Positions 41,509-62,462 of a stretch of DNA of 64,000 nt are shown piece by piece. The position numbers and the translations under genes were made by a program. A model generated the notes under the pieces. It was not told the origin of the DNA and did no database searches. It saw nothing but the letters and a program-made list of their open reading frames with translations. Position 1 is the stretch's first letter; each line of letters starts with the position of its first letter. The DNA comes from a virus: UHGV virus genome UHGV-0287696; one strand, 5' to 3'.

Positions 41509-42069
41509 GTGACTACTTACGTACCTGATTTAAGTCTGGCCTCAGCCGAATTAGTGGTCGCTTTAATCAACCACGATAACGGTTCACGGTTGTCTCTAAA
41601 CGAAATCCGTATTAGCAACATTATGGCAAACCCGTCCCCGACCACTTCGCGTCGTAACACACTGACAGAGATTACAAAAATCAGGAAACCTGATGGTGCT
41701 TCTGTGGTTGTTTATTACGACCGTTTGGATGCGGACGAAGTGTTAGCGTCTGAACCTATTTTGATTTCGTTAGACGGTACCGAAGACAACCTTCGTGACA
41801 TTTTAGGTGTTGTAAATGAATTCTGCGGAACGAACTTACAACCCGAAGATTTACGTGCTGCAGATATCACCTTAGGTAACGAACCCATTGCTGTTAACGT
41901 TGCTGACGATTCTCCTGCGTGGATGAATGCGTTTATGGTAACGTTATTCGATACAACCGAACGAGCATTAGCAAACGAAGATGACGCGATCTTCTGTATT
42001 GGTGATGATGCTGTTCTTACTTTTGAGGTTCCAGATGACGACACAGCTGAAGAAAACCCGGCTACATGA
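41509..42069 (+). CDS. tail-associated protein carrying the recurrent anchor-like domain
   Basis: GTG 41509 with GGGAGG RBS; ~160 aa homologous to the C-terminal domain of ORF 47464 (VVALINHD..VVYYDRLDA..DILGVVNEFCGTNLQPEDL..VLTF). Confidence 0.45.
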   Translation: MTTYVPDLSLASAELVVALINHDNGSRLSLNEIRISNIMANPSPTTSRRNTLTEITKIRKPDGASVVVYYDRLDADEVLASEPILISLDGTEDNLRDILGVVNEFCGTNLQPEDLRAADITLGNEPIAVNVADDSPAWMNAFMVTLFDTTERALANEDDAIFCIGDDAVLTFEVPDDDTAEENPAT

Positions 42070-42271
42070 ACTTGACCGTTTTACCGGTAATGGAGGCCAA
42101 CGCAAACTTTTATCAAAACTTAACAATCCCAAATCATGAAGCGCGGAGTTGGGCATCACTTTCACGTTAGAAGATGATGGATTAAAACCAGTATAATAAT
42201 CCGCTTATAAAAATGTTGAGGGGTAAAACACTTCCTCAGATCTTTTAGCTCCCGATAGAGAATTAAATATC

Positions 42272-45200
42272 ATGGCTAAAGCGGTAAAGAAAATTCGTTT
42301 ACACGATTTACGTCCATACACCGGGGATATCGGTGAAGGCGTTTTACTTTTTTCGAAAGACGAAAGGGATTATCAGTTACCTGTCCGCGAGATTGTTGCG
42401 GATATTGACACCGTCAGAAACGCGGTTGCCGACGCACAAACGGCGGCGGCCAAATCGCAACAGTCTGCAACAGAAGCCACACAAGCAAAAGACTTAGCAG
42501 AAACCGCGAAGCAACAAACTGACACGTTAGCTTCCACCGTTAGCGAGCAAGCGGGAACCGTTGCCACTAAAACTGCTGAGGTTAGCAAAAAACACGCTGA
42601 AGTTTTAGCCGCGAAAACTGCCGTAGATACTGTATTACAGTCGGTAAATGAGAAAGCTCAAGCTGTCGCTACAAGCGAACAATCGGTGACGGCTGCAGCG
42701 GCTGATGTAACTAAGAAAGCAGAAACGGTTACGCAACAGGCCGGACAAGTTCAACAGACGGCTACCGGTGTCGAGAATACTGCGGCTTCAGTTGAGGCCA
42801 GTAAGGGCGCAGTGGAGAAGATTGCTGCACAGGTCGCGAAAGATAAAGAAAGTTCAGAAGGCGCAGCAACACGTTCGGAGTCAGCTGCCTTACGTGCGGA
42901 GAAAATCGCTGCGCAGGGCTTAATCGACGCTAGTACAACCGGTAAAGGTATCGTTAAACTTAACGATACACTGACTAGCGAATCCGTGACTGAGGCTGCC
43001 ACACCGTCCACGGTTAAACAGCTGAATGACGAATTACAGTTAAAAGCCAATAAACATTCGCCGAATTTTACGGGTAAACCGTCATCCCCAACACCCCCGA
43101 AAGATTCAAACGACACGAGTATTTCCACAACGGCCTGGGTGCGTGACGCGATTGCGGAACTGGTTGGTTCTTCACCCGAGACGTTAAATACCTTAGCGGA
43201 ATTAGCTGAGGCGTTAGGTAATGACCCTAACTTCGCAACAACGATTACTGGGGAACTTGCGCAGAAACAACCCCTCAGTCCGTTGCTCACCGCCATTGCC
43301 GCAGTCACCACAGCGGCAAACAAACTCATGTATTTCACTGGCAGTAATAAAGTCGGATTAACGGATTTTACAGAAACGGCTAGATCCTTGTTAGCGAAAG
43401 GGTCAACTGCGGATATCATCAATTTCTTGGGATTAAAAGCCACTGTAGATAAAGCGAATAGCGCGTTACAGAAAAACTCTAACGGCGCTGATATCCCAGA
43501 TAAAGAAATGTTTGCTCGCAATATCGGTCTGTCTCCTGACACCTATCTGCGTTTCCGTGGCGAAATGCCAGTAGATGCCGATATTAACACATTTGCTCCT
43601 GATGCCAATTACACAGGAACGTGGGCTAAGTCGACGTCAACCAATGCGTCGATGGCAAAACATTTCCCAGAAGACGGTGCAGTCGGTTATCTGGAAGTGT
43701 ATAAAGCCGGTAATTACAGTGGCGCACAGCGTTTTACCTGCCGTAATGGTAACGTGTACAACCGTATGCTGAGTGGCGCGTGGAATGGTGCCAATGGACC
43801 CTGGTCACCGTGGAGAATGGTAACTACTGGTGTACGTCCGTTATCTACCTCTATAGACTTGAACAGTTTGGGTGGCGCTGAGCATATGGGTAACTGGCGA
43901 AACTCGTCCAGTTCGCTGGCTGTTTTTAGCAGACATTACCCTGAAGAAGGTGGTGGCGCGCAAGGCGTACTAGAAGTAATGGAAGGTGGTCTTTTCGGAC
44001 GGTTGCAACGATACACCACACGTCGTGGTACAATGTATGTCCGTGGTTTGACCGCAACGTGGGATTCATCAAACCCGCAATGGGAAGATTGGATTCAGGT
44101 TGGTTATCAGACTGACGGTGCTTTCTTTAAAGCCAATTTTGACGATCTCGTTAAACCGGGACGTTTCAGTGTCACTGGTGAAGCAACTAATGGTCCACTT
44201 ACCGGTTCTTCTGGTGAAACCATATTAGGCGTTTGTGAAGTTACCTTACGCTTAGACGGTACAGGGGTCGAACAGAATTATACTACATACGGTACGGGTG
44301 TAGAAACTAAAGGTCGTAAATTCCAACGTATCCGTACGGGTAACGCTTGGAGCGATTGGCGCGAGATTTTCACATCATATTCGCTTCCGTTAGTATTAGG
44401 TATAGGCGGTGAACGCGCGAATGTTGATCCTTTAGACTGGCAAACCTATGACTTTAAACCGGGTGAGTTAATCTGTACACCACTTAACACCATGAAAAAC
44501 ATTCCTGCGGGAATGGATTGGGGTGTTATTGACGGTAACTTAGTTAGCATTCTGGTTGGTCCATCAGATGGCGCATCCTCAGGCCGGAGTATGTTGGTTT
44601 GGCGTAGTACGGTGTCTACTGCCAACTATCGATTCTTTGCAGTACGTATCGCCGGTGAGAAAGGTAGTCGTACGATTACACCACGACAGATGCCTGTATT
44701 GAATGCAGCACACACCTGGGCAGAAAAACAGACCTTTGCAAAAGGGTTAGCAGGTGAGTTAACAGGCAATGCTTCAACCGCAACGAAATTAAAGACCGCA
44801 CGTAGAATTGGTGGAGTCGCTTTCGACGGCAGTGGTGATATTAACCTCCCAGGTGTTAACCAACAGGGTAATCAAAACACCACGGGTAATGCCGGTACAG
44901 CCACTAAACTTCAAACCGCCAGAAATATTAACGGTGTGAGGTTCGATGGTTCTGCTGACATCAATATCAACACCCTGGTAGGTCGTGGTCGGGTTACTGC
45001 ACTAACCGGTTCAAACAAAGGTACGCCTGGTATTCAGATGTACGAAGTTTACAATAACGGTTATCCGACCGCTTATGGTAACTTGCTGCATTTGGGCGGT
45101 TCTACTGCATTAGGTGAAGGTGAACTGTTAATCGGTTGGTCGGGCACGAGTGGTGCGCACGCACCCGTTTATATTCGTAGTCGACGTGATACAGCGGATG

Positions 45201-46870
45201 CGCCGTGGTCAGATTGGGCACAAGTTTATACTGCCCGTGATAGTATTCCTGGTGTAAATACCACCGGTAATCAAGATACTACTGGTAACGCTGCTACCGC
45301 GACGAAACTGAAAACTGCTCGCAGAATCGGGGGCGTTACCTTTGACGGTACTGGGGATATCAATTTACCGGGGGTTAACCAGCAAGGTAACCAGAATACG
45401 ACAGGTAATGCAGCAACCGCTACTAAGTTACAAACAGCACGTAAGATCGGCGGTGTTAACTTTGACGGTTCGCAAGACATTAGTCTGCCCGGTGTGAACC
45501 AAACCGGTAACCAATCGACTACGGGGAATGCTGCGACAGCGACTAAGCTCCAGACTGCGCGAAATATAGGTGGCGTAGCTTTTGATGGTACTAAAGACAT
45601 CAACTTACCTGGCGTAAACCAAACGGGTAATCAGTCGACCACCGGAAACGCGGCCACTGCAACAAAATTGCAGACAGCGCGTACCATTAACGGTATCGCA
45701 TTTGACGGCACTAAAAACATCGAAATAACGGCTGAAAGTTTAAATCTTGGTCAAACTGTAGAATTGGCCGGTGGGTCATTGCAGAAGAAACAGAACGGTG
45801 CCGATATTCCAGATAAGAGAAAATTCTTACGAAATGTTGGTGCCGCGAACACAACAACTGTGTCTTTTAATGGTGGTGCCGGATGGTTCAAACTGGCAAC
45901 TGTAACGATGCCGCAAGCCAGTTCCGTGGTTTACATAAGCCTGATTGGTGGTGCAGGGTTTAACGTTGGTTCCCCGCATCAAGCAGGTATCTCTGAGCTG
46001 GTTCTGCGTGCAGGAAATGGGAATCCAAAAGGTATTACTGGTGCGTTATGGCGACTGACTTCAGTCGGCTTCGCTAATTTTGCATGGGTGAATACATCTG
46101 GTGACACTTACGATATTTATGTTGAAATAGGTAATTACGCCACCGGTGTTACTATTCAGTGGGATTACACTAGTAATGCCAACGTAACGATTCATACATC
46201 GCCAAGTTATACGGCTAATAAACCCGCAGGACTAACAGACGGTACCGTCTATCTGATTTACAGCACACACAACAAGCCTAACGCTGGTGACATCGGTGCG
46301 TTACCGTCAGGGGGCGGTACTATAGGTGGCGATTTAACCGTTAACGGTAAATTGGTCACTAAGTACCCTGATTTTCGAATCGCTTACGGCAACTACGGCT
46401 TTATGTTACGTAACGATGGTGCCAATACCTATTTCTTAGTAACCGACGCCGGTCAAGCTGCAACGGGTTCCTGGAACGGTCTACGTCCGTTGTATTTTAA
46501 TAATGCTAACGGTCAAGTAACCTTTGGTCATAACGTTACTGGCAGCGGTAACGGTTCGTTTAACGACGTACAGATTCGTTCTGACCGTCGTAACAAACGT
46601 AATCTGGTGAAACTAGATAAAGCTTTGGATCGGTTAGAGTTACTAACCGGTTATTTGTACGAAATTCAGCATCCTGACGACGGCTGGCAGACCTCTGTAG
46701 GTTTAATTGCCCAAGACGCATTAGAAGCGTTACCTGAACTTGTGTCTGAGGACGACGATGCCATTTCAGGCGAAAAACGTTTACGTCTAAACTACAATGG
46801 CGTTATTGCGCTGTTAGTAGAGGGGATGAAATCCCTTCGCCAAGAGCTTAAAGAGCTTAAGGAGAAATAA
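42272..46870 (+). CDS. tail fibre protein with Ala-rich N-terminal region, ~40-aa tandem repeats and C-terminal S74 intramolecular chaperone domain
   Basis: 1532 aa; repeats NxTGNAATATKLQTARxIGGVxFDGxxDINLPGV about seven times; C-terminus SDRRNKRNLVKLDKALDRLELLTGYLYE...GLIAQDALEALPELV is the classic S74 auto-cleaving chaperone signature. Confidence 0.8.
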   Translation: MAKAVKKIRLHDLRPYTGDIGEGVLLFSKDERDYQLPVREIVADIDTVRNAVADAQTAAAKSQQSATEATQAKDLAETAKQQTDTLASTVSEQAGTVATKTAEVSKKHAEVLAAKTAVDTVLQSVNEKAQAVATSEQSVTAAAADVTKKAETVTQQAGQVQQTATGVENTAASVEASKGAVEKIAAQVAKDKESSEGAATRSESAALRAEKIAAQGLIDASTTGKGIVKLNDTLTSESVTEAATPSTVKQLNDELQLKANKHSPNFTGKPSSPTPPKDSNDTSISTTAWVRDAIAELVGSSPETLNTLAELAEALGNDPNFATTITGELAQKQPLSPLLTAIAAVTTAANKLMYFTGSNKVGLTDFTETARSLLAKGSTADIINFLGLKATVDKANSALQKNSNGADIPDKEMFARNIGLSPDTYLRFRGEMPVDADINTFAPDANYTGTWAKSTSTNASMAKHFPEDGAVGYLEVYKAGNYSGAQRFTCRNGNVYNRMLSGAWNGANGPWSPWRMVTTGVRPLSTSIDLNSLGGAEHMGNWRNSSSSLAVFSRHYPEEGGGAQGVLEVMEGGLFGRLQRYTTRRGTMYVRGLTATWDSSNPQWEDWIQVGYQTDGAFFKANFDDLVKPGRFSVTGEATNGPLTGSSGETILGVCEVTLRLDGTGVEQNYTTYGTGVETKGRKFQRIRTGNAWSDWREIFTSYSLPLVLGIGGERANVDPLDWQTYDFKPGELICTPLNTMKNIPAGMDWGVIDGNLVSILVGPSDGASSGRSMLVWRSTVSTANYRFFAVRIAGEKGSRTITPRQMPVLNAAHTWAEKQTFAKGLAGELTGNASTATKLKTARRIGGVAFDGSGDINLPGVNQQGNQNTTGNAGTATKLQTARNINGVRFDGSADININTLVGRGRVTALTGSNKGTPGIQMYEVYNNGYPTAYGNLLHLGGSTALGEGELLIGWSGTSGAHAPVYIRSRRDTADAPWSDWAQVYTARDSIPGVNTTGNQDTTGNAATATKLKTARRIGGVTFDGTGDINLPGVNQQGNQNTTGNAATATKLQTARKIGGVNFDGSQDISLPGVNQTGNQSTTGNAATATKLQTARNIGGVAFDGTKDINLPGVNQTGNQSTTGNAATATKLQTARTINGIAFDGTKNIEITAESLNLGQTVELAGGSLQKKQNGADIPDKRKFLRNVGAANTTTVSFNGGAGWFKLATVTMPQASSVVYISLIGGAGFNVGSPHQAGISELVLRAGNGNPKGITGALWRLTSVGFANFAWVNTSGDTYDIYVEIGNYATGVTIQWDYTSNANVTIHTSPSYTANKPAGLTDGTVYLIYSTHNKPNAGDIGALPSGGGTIGGDLTVNGKLVTKYPDFRIAYGNYGFMLRNDGANTYFLVTDAGQAATGSWNGLRPLYFNNANGQVTFGHNVTGSGNGSFNDVQIRSDRRNKRNLVKLDKALDRLELLTGYLYEIQHPDDGWQTSVGLIAQDALEALPELVSEDDDAISGEKRLRLNYNGVIALLVEGMKSLRQELKELKEK
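44761..44990 (+). repeat. tandem coding repeats (block 1) within tail fibre gene
   Basis: Two ~120-bp units encoding GNASTATKLKTARRIGGVAFDG.. and GNAGTATKLQTARNINGVRFDG.. Confidence 0.6.
45250..45720 (+). repeat. tandem coding repeats (block 2, about four units of ~120 bp) within tail fibre gene
   Basis: Repeated ggtaa(c/t)ca..ac(c/t)acgggtaatgc.gc.ac.gc.ac.aa..t.ca.ac.gc encoding GNQxTTGNAATATKLQTAR. Confidence 0.65.
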
Positions 46871-46872
46871 AA

Positions 46873-47376
46873 ATGGGGGTAGCATCTGGATGGGTCGGTT
46901 CTTCGGCCAAGAACGAAACGGGCGAACAATGGATGAGCGCTGCTGGTAGTAAATTAGGATTGGGTAGACCTTTTATGATGAGTCAAATGGTGGGACGATC
47001 AATGGGCTGTAAAATTGCAACTGCTGCATATAGCGATTCTTTAGGTAAGAAATGGGGCGCGGTAGGGCCAAGCTGGCCGTTAAACCAGAAAAATCAGGGA
47101 ACCATTCAAAACGCGGGTAACTGCGGGGTGGGAACTTTAGTAGGTATCGAGTTACAGTTAACGACGATAGTTGCTAACGCAAAACCCACTTTAGCGGTTT
47201 ACTTACAAGGTGGGAGAGCCTCTAACATTACCGTAAATTTAGGTGGCAACACTTGTACGCTGACCTATCAGCAGGTTATTAACGGACAGCATTATTACTG
47301 GACTAATAACATCAGCGCTGCGTTCCAAAACGTGATGAAATCAACCGGTACACTGAGAGATTTCAAAATTAGTTAA
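46873..47376 (+). CDS. hypothetical protein downstream of tail fibre (fibre accessory?)
   Basis: 167-aa Gly/Ser-rich ORF starting 3 nt after the fibre stop. Confidence 0.45.
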   Translation: MGVASGWVGSSAKNETGEQWMSAAGSKLGLGRPFMMSQMVGRSMGCKIATAAYSDSLGKKWGAVGPSWPLNQKNQGTIQNAGNCGVGTLVGIELQLTTIVANAKPTLAVYLQGGRASNITVNLGGNTCTLTYQQVINGQHYYWTNNISAAFQNVMKSTGTLRDFKIS

Positions 47377-47463: not shown

Positions 47464-49398
47464 ATGATGTTGGTGCGCGATATTAAAGATTACACCGAAC
47501 TAGCAACATACGCGTTAAATTCGTTGTTAACGCTTGACAAACCAGAAATACTCGACGAATCCGTCACGATAACGGTAGATCAAGAAACGAACTATGATTA
47601 CGTTGGCCAAGTCACTGGTCGTGTTTCTGTAGCTAGTCCCACTGAATATAAAATTGCGATGTATACCTATACAACGGGAGAGTACGCGCAAGGTGAATCA
47701 GCATTAAACGAATCGGGTGAGTTTAATTTTAAACGAACATGGCCGGGGACAAAACAATTTCGTTTAATTAGAATTGCTGATGGCAAATGGATTTCTACGT
47801 TAGAGTTCCCATTGTGCATCCGTAGTTACCATATGCCAGAAAACGCGGACCCTGAAACGATCAGGATTATGAAAGATCGGTGTTATACTTACGATCAGGC
47901 TGTTGCTGCTCTCGCATTAATGGTATACGGTCATGAAAAGGTAGAACAGTTTGTAAAAGGTCTTTTAGCGCTGGTCAATGAAGACGGGGGCGTTAAATTC
48001 TACGTAAACCGACTTTCAGCTAAATCTTCGCGAAATTATTACCGTATGGGTAACGTCGCGTGGGTACTTTACGCTTTAGCTTTTTATCTTGAAAAATTTC
48101 CTGCCGGAAATCTAGCGGCACAGGTTCGTGAAAAATTAACACTTTCCTTAACCTGGCTGGAAACTTACAAGGTAACGCAGGAGACAGATCGCCGCAAAGG
48201 TTTATATCTTGGTGGAAAGGGTCGTTTTGTTACTACCGAATCAGGCGAACGTGTTTTTGAAGAAGACTACGTTGCACCTTTTGCGGCTTTAGAACATCAG
48301 GTAGATATTTGGTTCCTGTTCGAATTACTAGGGCGCGTCGGTTTTGATGCATACCAACAAAAAGCAGCGGACTTCGGTAATAGAATAGTAGAAGCTTTTT
48401 GGATGGAAGACGAAGGACGTTTTCGTCAGGGTGTGAGAGAAACAGAAGATGATAACGCAGCTGCGTTAGATCAGTCCAGTTGGGGTGGGCTATTTGCGGC
48501 CAAATTTAAACCAGAGTACGCCGAACGTTGTCACGCTTTTATGGAGAAATTTCGCTCGGAAACCTCTGAGTGTCGTGGCTACACACCATACAAAACCGAG
48601 TTTGGTTACCCTAATGCTAAAGAAGGGGTGTGGGTTGAAGGTGCCGCCGGTGTTGCATTATTCGAACGTCAGTTAGGAAATGATAAACGTGCTGTTGAGA
48701 TCATTAACGACTTAGATGTTCTTTTATCAGAATACGGTTATCGTGATTCTTGCGATGATCCTACCTATGATACGCTGCCGCCGTGGTGGTCAACCACAAA
48801 CACTGCATGGGTGCTTTTAGTCTGTAAGCCAAGTAATTTTTGGCTTGTAGATAAGTCTCCTTTAACGGAGAGATATAATCCGCAGAATAAATTTTTACCA
48901 GATATTTCATTAAACTCTTTAAATCTTGTAATTTCGTTAGTGAATCACGATTTAAAAACAGATTACACGGAGTCTGATGTTGAAATCAGCAAGATTTCAC
49001 TTAGCACGGAAGAAAATCGTGACACAACAGCGATAATGGAAATAAGACGTCCTAATAAACGGTCGTTACAGATCTATTACAATCGTTTAACCGCAGAGCG
49101 GTGGTTAAACCAGCAACCTATTCTGGTAAAGGTCACCGGTAATGGTTTTACTACTCGCGATCTGATCGACGGAATTAATGCGGTCTGTGGTAGTAATTTA
49201 CAAGCCGACGATCTTACCGATAAAACATTTACCGTAGGGAGGGACGCTGTAACATTACAAGTTTCACCCAACTCGCTAGGTTATAAAGGCCAATTCTCCG
49301 TTCTGGTTTTCGGTAACGATGAAGAAGCCGCAGTAACAAAAGACAACGATTTAATCGTTACTGCAGATAACCGTGTCTTAACATTCGGAGGTCACTAA
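47464..49398 (+). CDS. tail-associated protein with glycosidase-like central region and C-terminal recurrent domain (putative depolymerase-type protein)
   Basis: 644 aa; central TYDQAVAALALMVYG...WVLYALAFYLEKF...WGGLFAAKF suggests an alpha-helical toroid glycosidase fold (inference); C-terminal 160 aa homologous to ORF 41509. Confidence 0.4.
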   Translation: MMLVRDIKDYTELATYALNSLLTLDKPEILDESVTITVDQETNYDYVGQVTGRVSVASPTEYKIAMYTYTTGEYAQGESALNESGEFNFKRTWPGTKQFRLIRIADGKWISTLEFPLCIRSYHMPENADPETIRIMKDRCYTYDQAVAALALMVYGHEKVEQFVKGLLALVNEDGGVKFYVNRLSAKSSRNYYRMGNVAWVLYALAFYLEKFPAGNLAAQVREKLTLSLTWLETYKVTQETDRRKGLYLGGKGRFVTTESGERVFEEDYVAPFAALEHQVDIWFLFELLGRVGFDAYQQKAADFGNRIVEAFWMEDEGRFRQGVRETEDDNAAALDQSSWGGLFAAKFKPEYAERCHAFMEKFRSETSECRGYTPYKTEFGYPNAKEGVWVEGAAGVALFERQLGNDKRAVEIINDLDVLLSEYGYRDSCDDPTYDTLPPWWSTTNTAWVLLVCKPSNFWLVDKSPLTERYNPQNKFLPDISLNSLNLVISLVNHDLKTDYTESDVEISKISLSTEENRDTTAIMEIRRPNKRSLQIYYNRLTAERWLNQQPILVKVTGNGFTTRDLIDGINAVCGSNLQADDLTDKTFTVGRDAVTLQVSPNSLGYKGQFSVLVFGNDEEAAVTKDNDLIVTADNRVLTFGGH

Positions 49399-50018
49399 TG
49401 GCTGAACTGGTAGGAAAGGTACGCGTTCACGAACTGCCGACACTTTCAGAAGACGTCACAGGTGTAGTCGTCTTAGCGTCTAAAGAACAAACTGAATACC
49501 AACTCCCGATTGAAAAATTAGGGGGTGGTGAGGTTACAGTGAGTCCGTCGGCGAATAACATCCTTAAGTCTAACAGTGATGGGTTGTTTGTTAATGGTGC
49601 GCACCCGATTGTACCAAAAATAGATGCAAAAACCGTATCGGGAAATATGGTAGTAGAAAAAACGTTGACGGGTGGTGCGGTAATCTGCAAAACAACGGTT
49701 GACGTTAATAACAGGCTGGGTGTTACGCAATTATCAGGGGTATCAATTTATAGCCAGTGTCTGTTGGAAAATAAATTGGTTTACCTGGCAGCAGATGGTG
49801 GTATTATTGATGCGTACTTCTACGTTAGTGGTACAAAAACCACAGCGAGTACAATAACCCACACCATTCGTGTTGTTTTAGCGAAGGTACCCTCTAAAGT
49901 TGTCGATATCACCGATTTGTCTGAAACCGAAGTACAATACGAGAATAGTAATTTACCTGTTAAGATCGTTATTAAACATCTTGCAGGGACAACACTTTCT
50001 CAGAACGGAATGAAATAA
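49398..50018 (+). CDS. tail fibre-related protein sharing the N-terminal domain of the large fibre
   Basis: MAELVGKVRVHELPTLSEDVTGVVVLASKEQTEYQLPIEKL aligns with fibre N-terminus MAKAVKKIRLHDLRPYTGDIGEGVLLFSKDERDYQLPVREI. Confidence 0.5.
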   Translation: MAELVGKVRVHELPTLSEDVTGVVVLASKEQTEYQLPIEKLGGGEVTVSPSANNILKSNSDGLFVNGAHPIVPKIDAKTVSGNMVVEKTLTGGAVICKTTVDVNNRLGVTQLSGVSIYSQCLLENKLVYLAADGGIIDAYFYVSGTKTTASTITHTIRVVLAKVPSKVVDITDLSETEVQYENSNLPVKIVIKHLAGTTLSQNGMK

Positions 50019-50024
50019 ATTTTA

Positions 50025-50069: not shown

Positions 50070-50098
50070 CTCAGATATATATTACCTAGAGGAGAGCG
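50070..50098 (+). promoter_or_regulatory. conserved early-type promoter motif (CTCAGATATATATTACCTAGAGGAGAG)
   Basis: Copy 4, immediately after a terminator and 46 bp upstream of ATG 50144. Confidence 0.55.
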
Positions 50099-53591: not shown

Positions 53592-53862
53592 AACAGTTGT
53601 ATTTCGTAGTAATGGTGATGTGGTTTTGTATCGTGGTAAGAAACGTATTCGTACGTTAGAATACCGAGAAGCAAAACGTTTCGTTGAAGAGTGTGCCTGG
53701 TTAATGCATTACGAAGGGAACTATCGTGCCATCTTAGAAGCGCCGCGTTTAGAACGTGCAGTTGCGCAGATGGCAATAGGTAATCCTAAGAACTGTTACC
53801 TGGCACGTAAGCCAAAATACCTACAACGTGTCTCGCTAGGCAGTTTTATTGCGGGATTTTAA
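53581..53862 (+). CDS. hypothetical protein
   Basis: ATG 53581 with GGGAGG upstream (track start 53560 is an alternative codon). Confidence 0.4.
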   Translation: MKRETVVFRSNGDVVLYRGKKRIRTLEYREAKRFVEECAWLMHYEGNYRAILEAPRLERAVAQMAIGNPKNCYLARKPKYLQRVSLGSFIAGF

Positions 53863-53873
53863 TAAAAATAATT

Positions 53874-53912
53874 TCAGATATATATTACTTAGGTGAGAGT
53901 ACAAAAGCTCTC
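53874..53912 (+). promoter_or_regulatory. conserved early-type promoter motif with downstream palindrome (GTGAGAGTACAAAAGCTCTCAC)
   Basis: TTCAGATATATATTACTTAGGTGAGAG; copy 5, 44 bp upstream of ATG 53944. Confidence 0.55.
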
Positions 53913-53943
53913 ACTTAACTAAACCATTTTAGGAGAATATACC

Positions 53944-54210
53944 ATGAACTTCACTAAAGCTGATTATGCTAAAGAATTCGTTTCTAAAGAAGATTACAAG
54001 TTTACTGTTGAACTAGACTACGTATTAACCGAAGATGAAAAAGATGCGCTGTATAAAGCGTTCCGCAAACACTTCGGTGCGTTGTTCTTTATGGGTTTCC
54101 GTAAAGACTCTATCGATATTGGCTATACTGTCGCAGTACGTACCGATGAGGAAATGTTCAATATGGTGTGCGAAATCGTCAGTACCATTACTGCTAAACG
54201 TGCGATTTAA
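53944..54210 (+). CDS. hypothetical early protein (88 aa)
   Basis: RBS TAGGAGAA; follows the promoter motif. Confidence 0.5.
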   Translation: MNFTKADYAKEFVSKEDYKFTVELDYVLTEDEKDALYKAFRKHFGALFFMGFRKDSIDIGYTVAVRTDEEMFNMVCEIVSTITAKRAI

Positions 54211-54291
54211 CTTCAGCGTTTAATTACACTACAGGGTAAGGGAATCCCTTACCCTATTATTTCGATATGTAAAACTAAAAGGAAAATAAAA

Positions 54292-55068
54292 ATGAAAACT
54301 GTTGAGTTTAAAAATAGCAGTCTTTGGGCATACTCGCACATCATTACGAGTTTCCTGAAAAACGTTACTTCGCACCTCGCTTATCAGTTTTGTGGAAATG
54401 AGCTCACTATCGGTGGTTTTAACGAGGAAGAATTAAAACGTGCAAAAGAGTTCATTGTCGATGTTCTTCATGGTGATGCGACGTGTTTAGTTGTGAGTTA
54501 CGTTGCTAAAGACAAAGGAAGATTAAACATCATGGGAATCTTCAGGACACTCTCCGAAAAAGTATACGAAGTTGAGAAGGTTAGTCATGGCGTTTATATT
54601 GTTTACTTTAAACGTTCGGCGGAGAAAAACGCTGATAAACTTCTGGAGTATTTCGACTGTAACCCAGGGGAAGGTATGGATGTTTATACGCTCGGTTATG
54701 ATGGGGTACCTCACCGGAATAACCTTATTCGTATTGACGAACCTTTTTCAGTCAATGATAACTCCACGCCTATAGAGTTGGTTCTGGTACACAAAGATCG
54801 ATTCGCGCATTACGATTCCGATACTATTCAACGTGTCCTGAACAACGTTAATATACAGTTTTCACAAACCGAGCACCTGGTACGTGCTTGTGTTAGGTCT
54901 AACGGCACAACATCTTTTTTCCTCGAACGTCAAATCGTTTGGCAGACTTATCTGGCTTTGATGGAAGAACTCGATAGGATCGAACCAGTTCAGGTTGGTA
55001 CAAATTGCTTATATTGGATAAAAACAAAGGGGTTCATGAATGAAAACACTCAATTCAGATTTGCGTGA
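54292..55068 (+). CDS. hypothetical protein
   Basis: 258-aa ORF, RBS AAAGGAAAA. Confidence 0.5.
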   Translation: MKTVEFKNSSLWAYSHIITSFLKNVTSHLAYQFCGNELTIGGFNEEELKRAKEFIVDVLHGDATCLVVSYVAKDKGRLNIMGIFRTLSEKVYEVEKVSHGVYIVYFKRSAEKNADKLLEYFDCNPGEGMDVYTLGYDGVPHRNNLIRIDEPFSVNDNSTPIELVLVHKDRFAHYDSDTIQRVLNNVNIQFSQTEHLVRACVRSNGTTSFFLERQIVWQTYLALMEELDRIEPVQVGTNCLYWIKTKGFMNENTQFRFA

Positions 55069-55468
55069 TTATATCCGTAAGTATCCAGCCAGTATTCCTG
55101 TACTGGCTTCACTTACGCTTTCAGGTACTGACGTTAACGTCTTAACTGTGGAACAATTTCACGAGATAATAAAAACCGCATATAACTCCATTACCGCAAC
55201 GTCAGTACGTAAACGTTGCGATTATCCCGACGGTCCTTTCGGCACAGAGATGTTTACCGATTACGCGGTTGCGTTTCTGTTAGGCCGACACTGTCTCGAT
55301 AAACTTAACACTGCTGTAGAAGGGGAAACAGTGACGGAAATAGTCAATGCTTGGCAGCAACGTATTCTGAATGACCCTTACTGCCGCCAAGCGTTAAAAC
55401 GTATGTCCACAACGGCGATTACAAACGACCAGCGTGCTTTAGAGTTCTTTAAGCACAACTACAGCTAA
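55040..55468 (+). CDS. hypothetical protein, paralog of ORF 56721
   Basis: LRDYIRKYPASIPVLASL / ILNDPYCRQALKRMSTTAITNDQRALEFFKHN aligns with IRNYIRNNPIALGVLAGF / VYNDPTASALLSQMSQTSRDIDTRTLMYLAHN. Confidence 0.5.
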   Translation: MKTLNSDLRDYIRKYPASIPVLASLTLSGTDVNVLTVEQFHEIIKTAYNSITATSVRKRCDYPDGPFGTEMFTDYAVAFLLGRHCLDKLNTAVEGETVTEIVNAWQQRILNDPYCRQALKRMSTTAITNDQRALEFFKHNYS

Positions 55469-55490
55469 TTTACCAAAAAGGAAAAAAGAC

Positions 55491-56720: not shown

Positions 56721-57152
56721 ATGTTTTTCGTACTAAAAGATGAAATCCGTAACTACATTCGTAACAACCCGATTGCTCTGGGCGTTTTAGCAGGTTTCTG
56801 TCGTCCAAATACTGATTTCGATTTAGTTAAGTTAGAAGAATATCAGGAAATTGTGAATACTAACTACTTGCACATCTGTAGCTGGGGTAAACGTCCTCGC
56901 GAAGAGTACCCTGTAGGTGAGTTAGGTGACACTATGCACCGTGACCAGAATCTGATGCACGAATTCGTTGAATACACACTGGAAAATCTTAACTATCCGC
57001 TTCTGGTCGACACTGTACCAGAAATGGTTGACGAGTGGTTAAGTCGTGTTTACAATGACCCTACTGCCAGCGCTCTACTGAGCCAGATGTCACAAACTTC
57101 TCGTGATATCGACACCCGTACCCTGATGTACTTAGCACACAACGTTCGTTAA
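56721..57152 (+). CDS. hypothetical protein, paralog of ORF 55040
   Basis: RBS AAAGGAG; paralogy as above; codon usage fairly optimised. Confidence 0.5.
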   Translation: MFFVLKDEIRNYIRNNPIALGVLAGFCRPNTDFDLVKLEEYQEIVNTNYLHICSWGKRPREEYPVGELGDTMHRDQNLMHEFVEYTLENLNYPLLVDTVPEMVDEWLSRVYNDPTASALLSQMSQTSRDIDTRTLMYLAHNVR

Positions 57153-57159
57153 TCTCGCT

Positions 57160-57216
57160 CCGCTATAGGCTTCGGTCTATAGCGGAATTAATTTTCTTTC
57201 CCTTTTCTTTTTTGTT
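57160..57216 (+). terminator. intrinsic terminator
   Basis: ccgctatag-gcttcggt-ctatagcgg followed by a long T-rich tract. Confidence 0.7.
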
Positions 57217-57318
57217 ATTTTGACACTACTTTGCTTACTCTCTACTCGACTATTCCTATGCTGGCTGAGGGATGTAAAACGACCTCTTAAACCTTTTTAC
57301 TTATTGTGAGTTAACGCG

Positions 57319-58167
57319 ATGTCTCTTACGTCAAAACAGAAACTGCTAAAACTCATCAACACTGAAAACAATATTGTTCCGCCATTGACCTTCAGTGATG
57401 TTGATATCGGCGAACCTACTGGTACTGGGGTTGATACCCAGGTGGTTCTGACTTCTAAACTCAAAGGCGATGAGTCTACTACTTTAACTGTGACTTATCA
57501 TCGTCGTAATTTGCCCGAATACCTAACAGGTGAGTTGGTATTCGGTAACGATGGTGTTGTAACCGCTACAGATTTGCTTAATGCAATCAACGCAAAATAC
57601 GATTTAAATATCCTGCCGTCGGATATCGTTGATGCGAAAGTTGAAGGTGAAACCCATCAGCTTACCGCTAACGAGAAATCCTACGAATGGTGTGGCGAGG
57701 TGACACTTACGCTACGCGACCCTATTGATTTGGCTAAACTGTTACCTGTTACTCAATTAGAAAACCTGGTAGAGTATCCGTCCACTAAGAAAGGTAACGC
57801 AGCGGTTTATTCTTATCCAATTGACTTCACCGCAGAAAAAGATTACCTCGATCCGATTACCATTAACGACACTGTCGACCTGGCTGAGTTAGCCACTAAA
57901 CTGGTCAACGTCGTTGATGAGAAATGGGTAAGTGTACCTAAAAACGCTGCTAATAACCTCTACGGTGCTAAGGTTATCTACGATGGCCCTACCGCAGGTT
58001 ACGAAGGCGCAAATACGAAGTACACGCGTGTGCTGGTACTCGCACTCAGTGGACTGTGTGCTAACCTGACCGGTAATCTGTTAATCCACTTTAACGGTAC
58101 CGATCGTCCGAAGTCGAAGATTGAATTAGCTAAAACTAATTCGGTCTTACCGGGATTCTTAGATTAA
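57319..58167 (+). CDS. virion-type protein, member of recurrent domain family
   Basis: N-terminal LLKLINTENNIVPPLTFSDVDIGEP..VDTQVVLTSK..TVTYHRRNL..DLLNAINAKYDLNILPSDIVD matches the family signature. Confidence 0.5.
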   Translation: MSLTSKQKLLKLINTENNIVPPLTFSDVDIGEPTGTGVDTQVVLTSKLKGDESTTLTVTYHRRNLPEYLTGELVFGNDGVVTATDLLNAINAKYDLNILPSDIVDAKVEGETHQLTANEKSYEWCGEVTLTLRDPIDLAKLLPVTQLENLVEYPSTKKGNAAVYSYPIDFTAEKDYLDPITINDTVDLAELATKLVNVVDEKWVSVPKNAANNLYGAKVIYDGPTAGYEGANTKYTRVLVLALSGLCANLTGNLLIHFNGTDRPKSKIELAKTNSVLPGFLD

Positions 58168-58180
58168 GAGGATTACAGTA

Positions 58181-58657
58181 ATGACCAGTCAAGAAACTAT
58201 CTTCGACCTTATTAAAAAGGCTAACCCAGACGCTGAGCTCGACACCGCCAAAGTTACATTGGGTGAGCCCGTCGTAAGTACCGGTGCGTACAACACCGAA
58301 GTTACGGTTGCGTCAATTAAGAATCTCGGTTATGCTAATAAGCAAACGTTCCAGTATAACCGCATTGATGCAGGTTTGTATTTCCTCAACGTATTGCCGA
58401 AACTGTTAGTTGAATCAGCAACTACGACTGCGGACCTGTTGCCTGTAATTAACGAACAATATGGCTTAACCCTTACTGAAGACGACGTATGGGTAGAGCA
58501 GGTTGGTGAGTTACCGCTGGACGGCAGTACAATCGAGCACGGCATTTTCTTCCGTCCTGAGTGCCTAACCTGGGTCGGTGGTTTTACAGTGCGCGTTGCG
58601 CGTAAGCCGACTGTTGAAACACCGCCAGCTAATCCATCGCGCGCTAAGAAGAAATAA
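58181..58657 (+). CDS. virion-type protein, member of recurrent domain family
   Basis: IFDLIKKANPDAELDTAKVTLGEP..NTEVTVASIK..FQYNRIDAG..DLLPVINEQYGLTLTEDDVWV. Confidence 0.5.
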   Translation: MTSQETIFDLIKKANPDAELDTAKVTLGEPVVSTGAYNTEVTVASIKNLGYANKQTFQYNRIDAGLYFLNVLPKLLVESATTTADLLPVINEQYGLTLTEDDVWVEQVGELPLDGSTIEHGIFFRPECLTWVGGFTVRVARKPTVETPPANPSRAKKK

Positions 58658-58661
58658 CGAC

Positions 58662-58697
58662 AGGGTGGGGTAATCCCACCCTCTTTTCTTTTTTTGT
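58662..58697 (+). terminator. intrinsic terminator
   Basis: agggtggg-gtaat-cccaccct followed by cttttctttttttg. Confidence 0.7.
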
Positions 58698-58718
58698 GTA
58701 AAAGAGGAGTTAAACAAA

Positions 58719-59309: not shown

Positions 59310-59410
59310 ACTGGTTTGCTAAACTCTTAGCGTTATTGTGGAAAGCGTTAACGTCTGGGCGGAAACGTAAAGACGAAAAGCGTGGATACGAATTTTTCTG
59401 GTTTCTATAA
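59306..59410 (+). CDS. small amphipathic peptide (34 aa) overlapping endolysin stop
   Basis: ATGA overlap; MNWFAKLLALLWKALTSGRKRKDEKRGYEFFWFL; below the track size cutoff. Confidence 0.3.
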   Translation: MNWFAKLLALLWKALTSGRKRKDEKRGYEFFWFL

Positions 59411-59425
59411 GGGAAGGTGTGGGTA

Positions 59426-60091: not shown

Positions 60092-60584
60092 CTTTAAACT
60101 CAAAGAGTTAGTACCACAGTCTTATATTGCCAAATACGGCGATTCTGCAATTCGGTTTATGAATCCGCTGTTAATGATTTCGCTACAACAGATTCGTAAC
60201 CGTTTCGGTAGAATGGTCATTAACTCAACCGCTGCGCAACAGCGTGGCCTAAGAACCTTAGACTTCTTTATTAATCAAGAAAAGCCTAAAGGCGGTAACT
60301 ATAAACAACGTGCTTTACAACTCTACTCTGATTCAGGAAGTCAACACAAATTCGGTAACGCAATTGACGCAACGTTGTTGGACAGTACCGTAAAGCAGGT
60401 TCACGACTACATCGCTGCTAACCCTGATGAGTTTCCGTTCATTCACTTTATTGAATGTGACATCAGTTGGTTACACATCGACGTTCGTAACCAACCTAAC
60501 ATTACTTTCTGGTCACCGAATCGCGGTACTGTGAAAGTGGTTAAGCAAAAACCAATCGACTGGAGCGCCTTAGTCGAGATTTAA
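60069..60584 (+). CDS. peptidase M15-like (zinc D-Ala-D-Ala carboxypeptidase/endopeptidase fold), putative second peptidoglycan hydrolase
   Basis: ATG 60069; SQHKFGNAIDA fits SxHxxGxAxD and WLHIDVR fits the C-terminal H-x-D zinc ligand motif of M15 peptidases. Confidence 0.45.
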   Translation: MFHPNPSNFKLKELVPQSYIAKYGDSAIRFMNPLLMISLQQIRNRFGRMVINSTAAQQRGLRTLDFFINQEKPKGGNYKQRALQLYSDSGSQHKFGNAIDATLLDSTVKQVHDYIAANPDEFPFIHFIECDISWLHIDVRNQPNITFWSPNRGTVKVVKQKPIDWSALVEI

Positions 60585-60669
60585 CTATTTCTAAGGTGTT
60601 TATACCTTATTTCGTATAAAGACGCTTAGAATGCGTTCTACGCACGATTTGGCGGTTAAAATGAATATA

Positions 60670-60706
60670 CCCTACTCCTTAACGGGAGTAGGGTAGTTTT
60701 TATTAT
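60670..60706. terminator. hairpin terminator shared by convergent genes
   Basis: ccctactcc-ttaac-gggagtaggg followed by tagtttttatt; abuts the stop of the - strand lipoprotein gene. Confidence 0.6.
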
Positions 60707-61182
60707 TCCGCAGGATGGAGCATTGTTCCGGTGTCAGGAGCTACGCCTTCCTTACAGTGGAAGAAAGTAATGCCTTTACCATCACCCGTTTTATATTCTA
60801 AAGTAGAATACGCAAACGTTGGCGTTTTTGAAAGTAACCCATTTACACGGTAGTAACGTTGCCCCGTGATAGGATCGATATTTCCATTAACTTTACCTAA
60901 TAAATCTTTATAAAGTTGGGGTGACTCAATCTTACCATTTGGCCAAGTGGCTACCCAGTTAGCGCCAGTATCGATTACAGTTACTGAACCTAACATTAGG
61001 TTAGTCGAACTGACGACAGGTTTGTAATTTACAAAATCCTGCTCTACACCCATACAGGTGTAAATAACCATGTCGTGTGGCTCTACGGGTACAGTTGAGA
61101 ATTGGCCATTACTATTCGGTTGTAAAGCACATCCTGCTAATGAAAAAACACCAACCATAGCGATAAGAAAACGTTTTAGCAT
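60703..61182 (-). CDS. putative lipoprotein (moron; possible superinfection exclusion factor)
   Basis: Start at internal ATG (MLKRFLIAMVGVFSLAGC, lipobox LAGC) with RBS AAGGTG; only - strand gene inside a + strand block. Confidence 0.5.
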   Translation of the reverse strand: MLKRFLIAMVGVFSLAGCALQPNSNGQFSTVPVEPHDMVIYTCMGVEQDFVNYKPVVSSTNLMLGSVTVIDTGANWVATWPNGKIESPQLYKDLLGKVNGNIDPITGQRYYRVNGLLSKTPTFAYSTLEYKTGDGKGITFFHCKEGVAPDTGTMLHPAE

Positions 61183-61320
61183 GTTTTCACCTTTTATAAA
61201 AAAGTTAAAAATAATAATTTTACAGACGACCCTTACTGCCATCTGTCATAACTATTAAAACCACTTCTATAATCCGAACAATACTATGCAATCCACCCTG
61301 CCACACACGAGGTAAAAACG

Positions 61321-61866
61321 ATGGCTAAAGCTTTCAATCTGCAGCTCATTGAAGCTGTTAAAGCTAAAAACCCTGAAACTGCTTCTAAACTGACCGTAAA
61401 TGATGTCGATTTCGGGGCCGTAGAAGCTTACACCCCGACCGGTAAAAGCGACGCCCGTAACACTAAAGTTGTCCTGACAGCGAAGAGCACGAGTGCTAAC
61501 TTCACCGGTAATAAAGAATTTCATTACATCCGTCTGGCATCCGCTAACCTGATTGGGGCCAAAGCTTACCAGCAGGAAGGTAGCCTCGACCTGGAAAATG
61601 ACGCCATCGTAACCAAACTCAATCAAGAAATGGTTACTAAAGGTTATGCCGATGACGCGTTCGCTGTAGGTGAACTCACTATTGAGAAAACTAATGGCGA
61701 GAGCGGTGCTAAGGTTTACACTATCAAAGTAAACGAAGGTCACATCAAATTCTTAGCCGGTACCATTGCTACCTTCACCTATACCAACCCGGTTCCTCCG
61801 AAGGTAGCTCTGAGCGGCCTGGAAGGTGAACTGGATGGTTTCACCGCACCGTCTCCTAAAGAGTAA
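61321..61866 (+). CDS. abundant virion-type protein, member of recurrent domain family
   Basis: Strongly optimised codons; QLIEAVKAKNPETASKLTVNDVDFGA..NTKVVLTAK..FHYIRLA..GELDGFTAPS. Confidence 0.55.
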   Translation: MAKAFNLQLIEAVKAKNPETASKLTVNDVDFGAVEAYTPTGKSDARNTKVVLTAKSTSANFTGNKEFHYIRLASANLIGAKAYQQEGSLDLENDAIVTKLNQEMVTKGYADDAFAVGELTIEKTNGESGAKVYTIKVNEGHIKFLAGTIATFTYTNPVPPKVALSGLEGELDGFTAPSPKE

Positions 61867-61869
61867 TTA

Positions 61870-61904
61870 AATCGGGGAGGGGGTAACCTCCCCGATATTT
61901 CTTT
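61870..61904 (+). terminator. intrinsic terminator
   Basis: atcggggagg-gggtaa-cctccccgat followed by atttcttt. Confidence 0.6.
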
Positions 61905-61931
61905 AACTCGTACTATTAAGGATTTAAGATA

Positions 61932-62462
61932 ATGGCAGCTACTAACCAGATGATGTTGGTCGCGCTTTACAATGCTGCTAACACCGAGCTACCACATCAG
62001 GTAACTGATAAAGAAGTGTCCTTTGGTCTCCCTACTGCGCTGGAAGGCGAAGGTAAGAATACCAAAGTTACCATGACTGCACTACCAGGTTCTGAGAATT
62101 TCAAAGGCGCAATCGAACTGAAATACGATCGTCTGGAACCGGGTGTTGTAGGGCGTATTGAACTAACTGACGATCTGTCTCGTTGGGAAGATCAAAACGA
62201 ATTGCGCGCATGGTTACAATATTACATCAATAAAGTTAAACCGGACGATGCTATTCATCCAGCGGACGTTTCTTATTCTACCGAAGACCAGAAAGACGAA
62301 CATGAAAACGTCACTCTGCGTACGGTAACGTGCACCGTTACTGAAAAGAACCTCCGTTATAAACCAGGTGTAATGGCAACTTTCGTAATTACGCCGAAAG
62401 TTGTTGATAATCGTATTGACCTGGCCACCACCAACGGTGAGCTGGACGGCTTTACGTCCTAA
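61932..62462 (+). CDS. abundant virion-type protein, member of recurrent domain family
   Basis: Optimised codons; MLVALYNAANTELPHQVTDKEVSFGLP..NTKVTMTAL..LKYDRLE..GELDGFTS. Confidence 0.55.
   Translation: MAATNQMMLVALYNAANTELPHQVTDKEVSFGLPTALEGEGKNTKVTMTALPGSENFKGAIELKYDRLEPGVVGRIELTDDLSRWEDQNELRAWLQYYINKVKPDDAIHPADVSYSTEDQKDEHENVTLRTVTCTVTEKNLRYKPGVMATFVITPKVVDNRIDLATTNGELDGFTS

Follow-up and report, generated by a model that had tools for sequence, protein, structure and literature searches.

The protein domain DUF7941 has been reported to be specific to the chimalliviruses. Phage Goslar encodes ten members (gp22, gp23, gp31, gp33, gp34, gp86, gp91-93 and gp161), with estimates of ~580 copies of gp22 and ~2140 of gp23 for each virion; purified gp22 forms filaments, and AlphaFold3 (AF3) modelling predicted head-to-tail docking, with the linker of each subunit bound to the N-terminal domain of its neighbour (bioRxiv 10.64898/2026.04.21.720040). 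In the same preprint it is proposed that these proteins constitute a baseplate-anchored 'fiber cloud', some members of which are fused to carbohydrate-binding modules (CBM), glycoside hydrolases (GH) or leucine-rich repeats (LRR) (bioRxiv 10.64898/2026.04.21.720040). In the 2026 atlas of phage phiKZ, each star lobe of the outer baseplate is assigned a single gp127, located where the gp139 band ends (PMC13250141). Phage SPN3US possesses a 'paralog family B' of 17-21 members (gp83, gp138-154, gp160/161 and gp237), which includes a long tandem run of genes and whose products have been known since 2016, by mass spectrometry, to be present in virions, gp141 and gp160 being among the most abundant (PMC5105663, PMC5694885, PMC10052503). 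In the SPN3US, phiKZ and Goslar literature cited here, family B and DUF7941 are never connected, and SPN3US is not mentioned in the Goslar preprint. Here, we analyzed a stretch of 64,000 nucleotides of the virus genome UHGV-0287696 (hereafter the window), and we conclude from sequence comparisons that seven of its open reading frames (ORFs) are paralogous DUF7941 members, and that they belong to the same family as paralog family B of SPN3US. The seven copies, one of which is preceded by a fused domain, are as follows, with scores for the Pfam family DUF7941 (PF25613) and, where given, for a family hidden Markov model (HMM) described below; lengths are in amino acids (aa).

20909-21436, + strand: ORF 20909, free-standing DUF7941 protein of 175 aa with a C-terminal ALDGF tail (Pfam 46.1 bits; phrog_2935, E 3.7e-47; HMM 99 bits)
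41509-42069, + strand: ORF 41509, free-standing DUF7941 protein of 186 aa at the head of the tail-fibre cluster, with a tail of the type DDAIFCIGDDAVLTF (Pfam 69.9 bits)
47536-48858, + strand: N-terminal cargo of ORF 47464 (aa ~25-465), predicted beta-sandwich and (alpha/alpha)6 six-hairpin glycosidase-like domain
48901-49398, + strand: C-terminal DUF7941 module of ORF 47464 (aa 480-644) with a DNDLIVTADNRVLTF tail (Pfam 51.9 bits, aa 482-616)
57319-58167, + strand: ORF 57319, full-length DUF7941 protein of 282 aa, of the type of phiKZ gp127 and Goslar gp22 (Pfam 182.8 bits, profile positions 5-275 of 276)
58181-58657, + strand: ORF 58181, short DUF7941 protein of 158 aa, consisting of the N-terminal domain only and a basic tail (RAKKK) (Pfam 104 bits; HMM 133 bits)
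61321-61866, + strand: ORF 61321, short DUF7941 protein of 181 aa with a C-terminal GELDGF tail, homologue of SPN3US gp160 and Goslar gp23, with its own terminator at 61871-61896 (Pfam 32.0 bits)
61932-62462, + strand: ORF 61932, paralogue of ORF 61321, 176 aa, with a C-terminal GELDGF tail (Pfam 41.0 bits)

All seven ORFs exceed the gathering score of PF25613 (27 bits), which was applied to whole-protein scores as the membership cut-off, and all match the linked PHROGs 1037, 2935, 3589 and 4862, which are mostly labelled 'virion structural protein'. The initial annotation, made from the sequence alone, had described a domain recurring in at least six ORFs by an ordered signature, and had credited ORF 20909 with a weaker copy of the last motif only. 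The recurrence is real, and the signature agrees with two residues, Asn17 and Arg62 (57319 numbering), that are invariant in all seven copies; ORF 20909, however, is a full member by both its Pfam and its HMM score. In an all-versus-all BLASTP comparison of the 227 ORFs of ≥50 aa in the window, ORF 41509 aligned with the last 165 aa of ORF 47464 (169 aa aligned, 34% identity, E 2.6e-29), a similarity already seen by the initial annotation, and ORF 61321 matched ORF 61932 over the full length (E 5e-12). The remaining links, which join ORFs 57319, 58181 and 20909 and these two strong pairs, are weak (E 3e-4 to 0.3), so that on pairwise comparison alone the claim for six regions would stay open. 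A family HMM built on 66 free-standing family representatives scored exactly these seven of the 227 ORFs at 82-133 bits; the next real ORF reached 13.6 bits, and the best score among 20 shuffled ORF sets was 7.8 bits. The Goslar proteins described as DUF7941 in the literature served as a positive control and were recovered by this HMM. Furthermore, an hhalign comparison of the most distant subgroups, the 61321/61932 type and the 41509/47464 type, gave a probability of 97% (E 1.1e-10 over 130 columns). The possibility that the shared signature reflects chance similarity among unrelated small ORFs could be argued from the weak E-values of several pairwise BLAST matches within the window (0.007 to 0.3), but it is already refuted by the fact that all seven ORFs pass a curated Pfam threshold, by the HMM and hhalign scores, and by the match to the fold of phiKZ gp127 described below, and we give it practically no credence.

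Two further candidates were considered. ORF 25645-26307, which accounts for the score of 13.6 bits and thus lies above the shuffled maximum, is not counted as an eighth copy because it has no Pfam DUF7941 match and belongs to a different PHROG. ORF 29520-30125 shows a weak BLAST likeness to ORF 58181 that was not supported by the family HMM.

With the same HMM, genes 143-150, 153, 156, 159 and 160 of SPLA1a, which is near-identical to SPN3US, scored 63-147 bits, and these scores identify SPN3US paralog family B as DUF7941. ORF 57319 matches SPLA1a gene 143 (= gp138; E 6.7e-64) and ORF 58181 matches gene 146 (= gp141; E 3.1e-28), whereas ORF 61321 is 46.5% identical (E 1e-37) to SPN3US YP_009153454, the 160th protein of the record, which corresponds by position to gp160; the SPN3US numbering was anchored on the 5.2-kb gene 168 (gp168). 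To the initial annotation, the domain had appeared uncharacterised. It is, on the contrary, catalogued in Pfam as DUF7941, described as paralog family B in SPN3US (PMC5105663, PMC5694885) and represented in the PDB by phiKZ gp127 (9xqd), and therefore the discovery of a new domain does not stand. The domain family itself being known already, what is new here is the reversed fusion in ORF 47464, a conserved LDGF-type tail motif, and the conflict between the head and the baseplate as the location of these proteins.

An AlphaFold2 (AF2) model of ORF 61321, based on an alignment of 46 sequences, predicted with a mean predicted local distance difference test (pLDDT) score of 94 a compact alpha/beta domain of two helices and seven strands, the tail from about residue 165 being less confident. 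The N-terminal globular domain shares the fold of phiKZ gp127 aa 1-150. phiKZ gp127 is the only clear structural neighbour of the DUF7941 domain in the PDB, and the comparison with this database revealed no structural similarity of the domain to any lectin or CBM.

To describe the family more widely, we used an exhaustive profile search over 1.84 billion cluster representatives, which yielded 2191 clusters at E ≤ 1e-3, of which 497 also reached E ≤ 1e-10; an earlier homologue search with an alignment of the seven copies had returned close relatives only. Among the best 150 representatives of the 2191 clusters, 73 are free-standing proteins of 150-230 aa, 40 consist of 2 to 8 or more domains joined covalently in tandem, and 33 carry an N-terminal module followed by other sequence. 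The module is internal in three, and in a single case, a protein of 212 aa, it is C-terminal after other sequence. A Pfam scan of eight larger representatives found cargo downstream of the N-terminal module in six, comprising beta-propeller/BNR, immunoglobulin (Ig), SPRY and concanavalin-like lectin domains, and DUF7941 only in the other two.

The free-standing members share a conserved C-terminal peptide, approximately (D)L..(I/V)..T.L(D/N)G(F/L).Y(P). Of 70 free-standing representatives, 26 have its strict core, L[DN]G[FL], among their last 35 aa, compared with 0.4 expected from shuffles (maximum 4); the core is located 5-14 residues before the C-terminus and is also found at the domain boundaries of tandem arrays. 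This conserved tail motif, recognised by comparing sequences across the family, is a new observation of the present analysis. In the window it is seen in the tails of ORFs 20909, 61321 and 61932, and the linker of ORF 57319 holds a degenerate form, QLENLVEYP. Degenerate forms are likewise present in the linkers of Goslar gp22 (TNLGNLTYV), gp31, gp33 and gp34, and gp23 has a related VADGF near its C-terminus. Instead of this motif, the tails of ORFs 41509 and 47464 contain a twice-repeated (D/N)(D/G)xx(V/L)LTF peptide that is common to their subfamily, and in ORF 58181 the motif scan detected neither of the two.

The copies differ in length. ORF 57319 consists of an N-terminal domain (aa 1-134), a linker motif, PIDLAKLLPVTQLENLVEYP (aa 135-156), and a C-terminal domain (aa 157-282). 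Because its alignment with phiKZ gp127 (PDB 9xqd; E 7.4e-7) reaches the linker and the C-terminal domain of gp127, it is of the full-length type, whereas ORFs 58181, 61321, 61932, 20909 and 41509 are short forms. ORF 58181 starts 13 nucleotides (nt) downstream of ORF 57319, and this pair is flanked by terminator hairpins at 57159-57186 and 58662-58682; a bidirectional terminator (62477-62507) follows ORF 61932, whose best Goslar match is gp23 (E 1.5e-8). The initial annotation had spoken of two highly expressed pairs. When 72 window genes were ranked by a codon index that takes the capsid gene as reference, ORFs 61321 and 61932 came 1st and 3rd, and only the capsid gene has a lower effective codon number than ORF 61321. 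These ranks fit the correspondence of this pair to the very abundant Goslar gp23 and SPN3US gp160, and the capsid-like codon optimisation from which the initial annotation had deduced their abundance is borne out. ORFs 57319 and 58181, on the other hand, rank only 11th and 18th, and the description of two highly expressed pairs is therefore supported for one pair only.

No excess of sigma-70-like promoters was found in the 54-64 kb region. A motif shared by the regions upstream of ORFs 57319, 61321 and 32132, RACGACCYYTWA, was rejected as a promoter motif, since it has 12 matches versus 5.4 expected and most of these are not upstream of genes. In the form (A/G)ACGACC(C/T)(C/T)T(T/A)A it is present on the + strand at 57278-57289, 61225-61236 and 32107-32118, 15-100 nt upstream of the three ORFs; as a late promoter element it would be a weak candidate, too weak to claim.

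The copies lie in a region that is a densely packed block of + strand genes, and the window is homologous to and syntenic with Goslar in its capsid gene and in the genes corresponding to gp35, gp36, gp32, gp48 and the endolysin. The main neighbouring features are listed below.

ORF 8277: major capsid protein, counterpart of Goslar gp41 (E 6.6e-53)
ORF 15989, - strand: counterpart of Goslar gp36, annotated as virion structural protein
ORF 18706 (18706-20901): baseplate wedge, counterpart of Goslar gp35
21429-22316, + strand: DUF7208 spoke protein, counterpart of Goslar gp32 (E 3.1e-37) and homologue of phiKZ gp139 (Pfam PF23838, 334.5 bits)
42272-46870, + strand: ORF 42272, mosaic long tail fibre of 1532 aa (PHROG tail-fibre; Pfam Gp34_trimer, Phage_fiber_2 and Peptidase_S74)
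46873-47376, + strand: Gp38-type adhesin gene following the long tail fibre (Pfam Gp38_N, 72 bits)
49398-50018, + strand: ORF 49398, fibre-like protein of 206 aa with the 41-aa N-terminus of ORF 42272, starting at the stop codon of ORF 47464
ORF 58719: endolysin, counterpart of Goslar gp24

ORF 20909 is situated between the wedge gene and the spoke gene and overlaps the start of the latter, a position that is also that of Goslar gp34/gp33. ORF 41509 has an orthologue in SPLA1a gene 129 (E 1.2e-41) and is 83% identical to the gene at 54264-54827 of an element of E. coli 98232; in both, the orthologue likewise heads the tail-fibre cluster. The GTG at 41509, located downstream of a terminator hairpin, is the credible start and is preceded by a GGGAGG ribosome-binding site. 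A longer ORF starting at 41476 was rejected, since it begins inside that hairpin and would run through it. The first 41 aa of ORF 42272 recur at the start of ORF 49398 (E 1e-5). In SPLA1a and E. coli 98232, a small fibre gene sharing this N-terminus with ORFs 42272 and 49398 (E ~1e-5 to 1e-8) is found at the stop codon of the 41509 orthologue. In the window, a relic, LKKTRLHELDRFTGNGG, is present at 42047-42097 (+ strand, frame of 41951), out of frame and overlapping the 3' end of ORF 41509 (compare VKKIRLHDLRPYTGDIGEG in ORF 42272). The window lacks the small fibre gene that E. coli 98232 has at this place, as well as a 1001-aa tail protein, and therefore ~3.4 kb appears to have been lost or replaced there. 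The long tail fibre itself is a mosaic with T-even-type modules (Gp34 trimerisation domain, fibre repeat and Peptidase_S74 chaperone), and positions 45780-46264 have 85-88% DNA identity to Yersinia phage vB_YpM_39 and Escherichia phage CMS-2020a.

ORF 47464 combines two parts of different origin. Its first 464 aa are 55-60% identical to the distal 460 aa of 608-aa prophage tail-fibre proteins of E. coli, Citrobacter, Salmonella and Yersinia, and match phrog_13714 (E 2.8e-181); no Pfam family was detected at E ≤ 0.1 and no PDB sequence match was found for this part. AF2 modelling gave pLDDT values >90 for aa 10-470, which form a beta-sandwich and an (alpha/alpha)6 toroid. A Foldseek search of the PDB with this model returned 73 matches at E ≤ 1e-3, all of them toroid enzymes, with the rhamnosidase 4xhc of K. 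oxytoca on top (E 4.7e-8) and with GH63, invertase-type hydrolases and sugar epimerases/isomerases among the other neighbours, all at 9-14% identity. The N-terminal part thus belongs, as judged from the predicted structure, to the six-hairpin glycosidase-like toroid fold. The term 'glycosidase-like' of the initial annotation is therefore appropriate at the level of the fold but has no counterpart in a match to a Pfam glycoside hydrolase family, and hydrolase activity is not established because the structural neighbours include isomerases and epimerases.

The DUF7941 part of ORF 47464, in turn, is 77% identical to a free-standing gene of 170 aa (44085-44597) of NZ_CP173450.1 (E. coli 98232). 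Nucleotide alignment with this relative showed that two insertions in the window flank the module: one of ~2 kb placed the toroid domain in frame upstream of it, and one of ~0.6 kb placed ORF 49398, which is absent from NZ_CP173450.1, immediately downstream. The fused form is represented by 52 sequence variants in a 90% cluster, on many ~222-kb contigs, and is thus not an assembly artefact; the look-up found contigs for the cluster but none encoding the exact 47464 product. Taken together, these alignments indicate that the toroid was acquired horizontally from enterobacterial prophage tail fibres and was fused to the N-terminus of a formerly free-standing DUF7941 gene. In the ~608-aa prophage fibres, a PF08400 virion anchor is N-terminal and the toroid (phrog_13714) is C-terminal, whereas in ORF 47464 the PF08400 anchor is missing and the DUF7941 module follows the toroid. 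This polarity, with the cargo first and the module last, is rare, being opposite to that in Goslar and, with few exceptions, to that in the best 150 representatives. One and the same DUF7941 gene thus stands alone in one strain and is located behind a foreign glycosidase-like domain in another. This constitutes a natural experiment, and the comparison could be used to test cargo mounting and a possible effect on host range.

How might these proteins function? The reading that we favour, with some reservation and largely by analogy with homologues, is that DUF7941 proteins form an external, self-associating virion polymer that is rooted at the baseplate and carries host-recognition cargo. The unit would be a globular alpha/beta domain of ~140 aa with a short conserved tail or linker peptide, and the tail or linker of one subunit would dock on the globular domain of the next, generating flexible head-to-tail chains on the virion exterior that would be rooted at the outer baseplate beside the DUF7208 spoke protein. 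ORFs 61321 and 61932, and probably ORFs 57319 and 58181, would encode the abundant bulk subunits, ORF 20909 would be the copy tied to the baseplate genes, and ORFs 41509 and 47464 would be members of a tail-fibre cassette, the DUF7941 module of the latter mounting the acquired six-hairpin glycosidase-like domain on the particle for recognition or degradation of the host surface. What the window itself contributes to this reading is the homology, the fold, the gene context, the codon bias and the recent origin of the fusion. The overlap of ORF 20909 with the DUF7208 gene, together with the observation that the phiKZ gp139 band ends at gp127, was counted in favour of a root at the baseplate, and the covalent tandem arrays, with the motif at their domain boundaries, lend indirect support to head-to-tail self-assembly. 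The abundance in the virion, the filaments (gp22) and the position at the baseplate (gp127) are taken from homologues, and our own inferences are the docking by means of the tail motif and the role assigned to each of the seven copies.

Several points weigh against this polymer reading. The Goslar filament cloud is a preprint proposal, and gp127 in 9xqd is an AlphaFold model docked in a ~4.4 Å map, with the N-terminal domain only (PMC13250141). The copies need not all behave alike, since ORF 58181 has no tail motif and ORFs 41509 and 47464 have a different one. The C-terminal DUF7941 module of ORF 47464 was modelled by AF2 with a pLDDT of 35-55, which makes it unusable as a fold test, and the predicted toroid matches no Pfam glycoside hydrolase family. 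Finally, the CsCl-purified tailless heads of two SPN3US mutants contained family B in amounts equal to or above those of the wild type (PMC5105663, PMC5694885, PMC10052503), and the family was assigned to the head because of this retention. The literature thus conflicts on the location of DUF7941 proteins, the SPN3US proteomics placing them in the head and the phiKZ and Goslar studies in baseplate filaments.

That the DUF7941 proteins are head components, whether as external decoration or fibres or as internal or ejected proteins, is what was concluded for SPN3US family B, and the conclusion bears directly on the window, since SPN3US gp138-154 and gp160 are DUF7941 proteins and gp160 is the homologue of ORF 61321. 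The mutants in question, 64_112(am27) and 255(am107), kept these proteins in tailless heads, in the latter case after two CsCl gradients, with normalised spectral counts equal to or above those of the wild type; gp141 and gp160 rank with the most abundant proteins of the virion. It follows from this retention either that some of the polymer is bound to the head or that free filaments co-purify with heads; self-assembling filaments could indeed co-sediment with them. The glycosidase-like, lectin, beta-propeller and Ig fusions make an internal or ejected role unlikely but do not argue against external attachment to the head. By analogy with the SPN3US homologues, which stay with tailless heads, the decoration role that the initial annotation had listed is possible for DUF7941 proteins. 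Other data point away from the head: phiKZ gp127 was modelled at the outer baseplate, the window copies adjoin baseplate, tail-fibre and endolysin genes, and SPN3US gp237, a member of the family, has been re-assigned to the tail. On balance we consider a location in the head rather unlikely. Should the data for the head (SPN3US) and those for the baseplate (phiKZ and Goslar) both prove correct, the polymer would cover, or extend from, several parts of the particle.

A different question is whether all copies are filament subunits. The copies of the phrog_2935 type (ORF 41509, the C-terminus of ORF 47464 and perhaps ORF 20909) might be dedicated adaptors that join the 41-aa fibre N-terminus to the baseplate, a sub-hypothesis that was rated as not exclusive of the others and that we entertain tentatively, as a possibility of limited weight. 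It draws on a recurrent arrangement, in which the stop codon of a DUF7941 gene coincides with, or lies close to, the start of a fibre gene that has the shared N-terminus. This arrangement was encountered four times: in ORFs 47464 and 49398, in SPLA1a genes 129 and 130, in the E. coli 98232 element (54264-54827 followed by 53837-54298), and in the relic LKKTRLHELDRFTGNGG after ORF 41509; in addition, the subfamily has its own repeated (D/N)(D/G)xx(V/L)LTF tail motif in place of LDGF. Gene adjacency is, however, all that this idea draws on for a joining role, the globular domain held in common with the other copies suggests a shared basic activity, and in the close relative no fibre gene follows the 47464-type gene. 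The initial annotation's idea of a shared anchoring or attachment module, either free-standing or fused to an enzyme, agrees with the reports on DUF7941. Its suggestion that the module might bind carbohydrate has fared less well. A carbohydrate-binding domain recognising the host surface would be in keeping with the co-encoding or fusion of the module with host-recognition proteins, but, as described above, the fold resembles no lectin or CBM and has phiKZ gp127 as its only clear PDB neighbour, the binding and hydrolase functions reside in separate cargo domains fused to the module, and copy numbers in the hundreds to thousands, together with the filaments, fit a structural polymer. We therefore regard such a function of the module itself as very improbable.

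Within the polymer reading, one may speculate further about a two-ended, plug-and-socket arrangement, in which the class of the tail peptide (LDGF-type, repeated DDxVLTF, or none) decides the docking partners and cargo can be mounted on either end; the prophage toroid would then have been captured very recently by N-terminal fusion, and both flanks of the module would be insertion hot spots for host-range genes. We offer this extension as doubtful.

On the basis of its capsid, wedge, spoke, spike-cap and endolysin genes, the window can be assigned to a ~222-kb Chimalliviridae-type jumbo phage of enterobacteria. No phage in INPHARED is similar to it at the DNA level beyond short mosaic patches. 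At the protein level, the nearest relatives of ORF 57319 are virion proteins of Seoulvirus (SPN3US-like) and of Erwinia jumbo phages (44-47% identity), compared with 23% for Goslar and 26% for phiKZ gp127; Seoulvirus and Goslarvirus are both classified in Chimalliviridae. Relatives at ~86% nucleotide identity have been deposited as circular 'plasmids' of 221,873 bp in E. coli 98232 and of 222,441 bp in Enterobacter ludwigii (complete assemblies NZ_CP173450.1 and NZ_CP134650.1), and the complete ~222-kb relatives carry the S80 prohead protease. Homologues are also present on many 220-227-kb contigs from isolate sequencing of Salmonella, E. coli and Shigella, which suggests that cultured isolates often bring the jumbo phage with them, perhaps as a pseudolysogen or in a carrier state. 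The whole genome of NZ_CP173450.1 contains eight DUF7941 genes. The eighth (189719-190282, 187 aa) lies outside the region covered by the window and adjoins a gene for a 2377-aa SLT-domain (tape-measure-like) protein; it may correspond to SPN3US gp237.

Some other features of the window deserve mention. No tRNA genes were found in it. Two paralogous genes at 55040-55468 and 56721-57152 (+ strand; 142 and 143 aa, 33% identity over 138 aa, E 1.6e-25) flank ORF 55491; they match phrog_8484 (unknown function) and no Pfam family, and the codon usage of the second is the fifth most capsid-like. An exact 12-mer, GATATATATTAC, is present three times on the + strand (3691-3702, 50074-50085 and 53877-53888), with near matches at 30913 and 10644. 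The copies at 50074 and 53877 are intergenic, ~60-70 bp upstream of ORFs 50144 and 53944, and the 38 nt at 53863-53900, which include one copy, are 100% identical to Erwinia phages phiEaH2 and Stratton. The 12-mer is a possible phage promoter, similar in appearance to the AT-rich early promoters known from phiKZ-like phages. Three tandem small ORFs at 5139-5309, 5466-5639 and 5806-6021 (+ strand, 56-71 aa) are similar to each other (E 4e-9 and 0.03), the opposite strand matching too, and may represent a short repeated gene or a repeat element.

Few paralogue expansions in phages are as large as that of DUF7941, and among its members are some of the proteins that are most abundant in the virions of nucleus-forming jumbo phages. 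The window joins the SPN3US literature to that on phiKZ and Goslar through clear orthologues, and it offers a compact set of seven or eight members in a lineage that is common in Salmonella, E. coli and Shigella sequencing data; the tail-motif observation could guide experiments. Compared with Goslar, this phage likewise has a full-length form (ORF 57319, corresponding to gp22) and short forms (ORFs 61321 and 61932, corresponding to gp23), one copy flanked by the genes for the wedge (gp35) and the spoke (gp32), and multiple paralogues of which some are fused to carbohydrate-active domains, here one of glycosidase-like fold; the linker motif is degenerate in gp22. It differs from Goslar in that the identity is 23% or less, and in having seven copies in the 64-kb window (eight in the genome of the relative) instead of ten. 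Moreover, it is for Goslar that filaments and copy numbers have been measured, and in Goslar the cargo follows an N-terminal DUF7941 domain, whereas in ORF 47464 it precedes a C-terminal one. phiKZ has about three members, gp127 and gp126 being 15-26% identical to the proteins of this phage. The closest experimentally studied homologues are those of SPN3US (44-47% identical), whose family B is far larger than the set of this phage, and in which gp138 corresponds to ORF 57319, gp141 to ORFs 58181/57319, gp160 to ORF 61321 and, by position, gp124 to ORF 41509.

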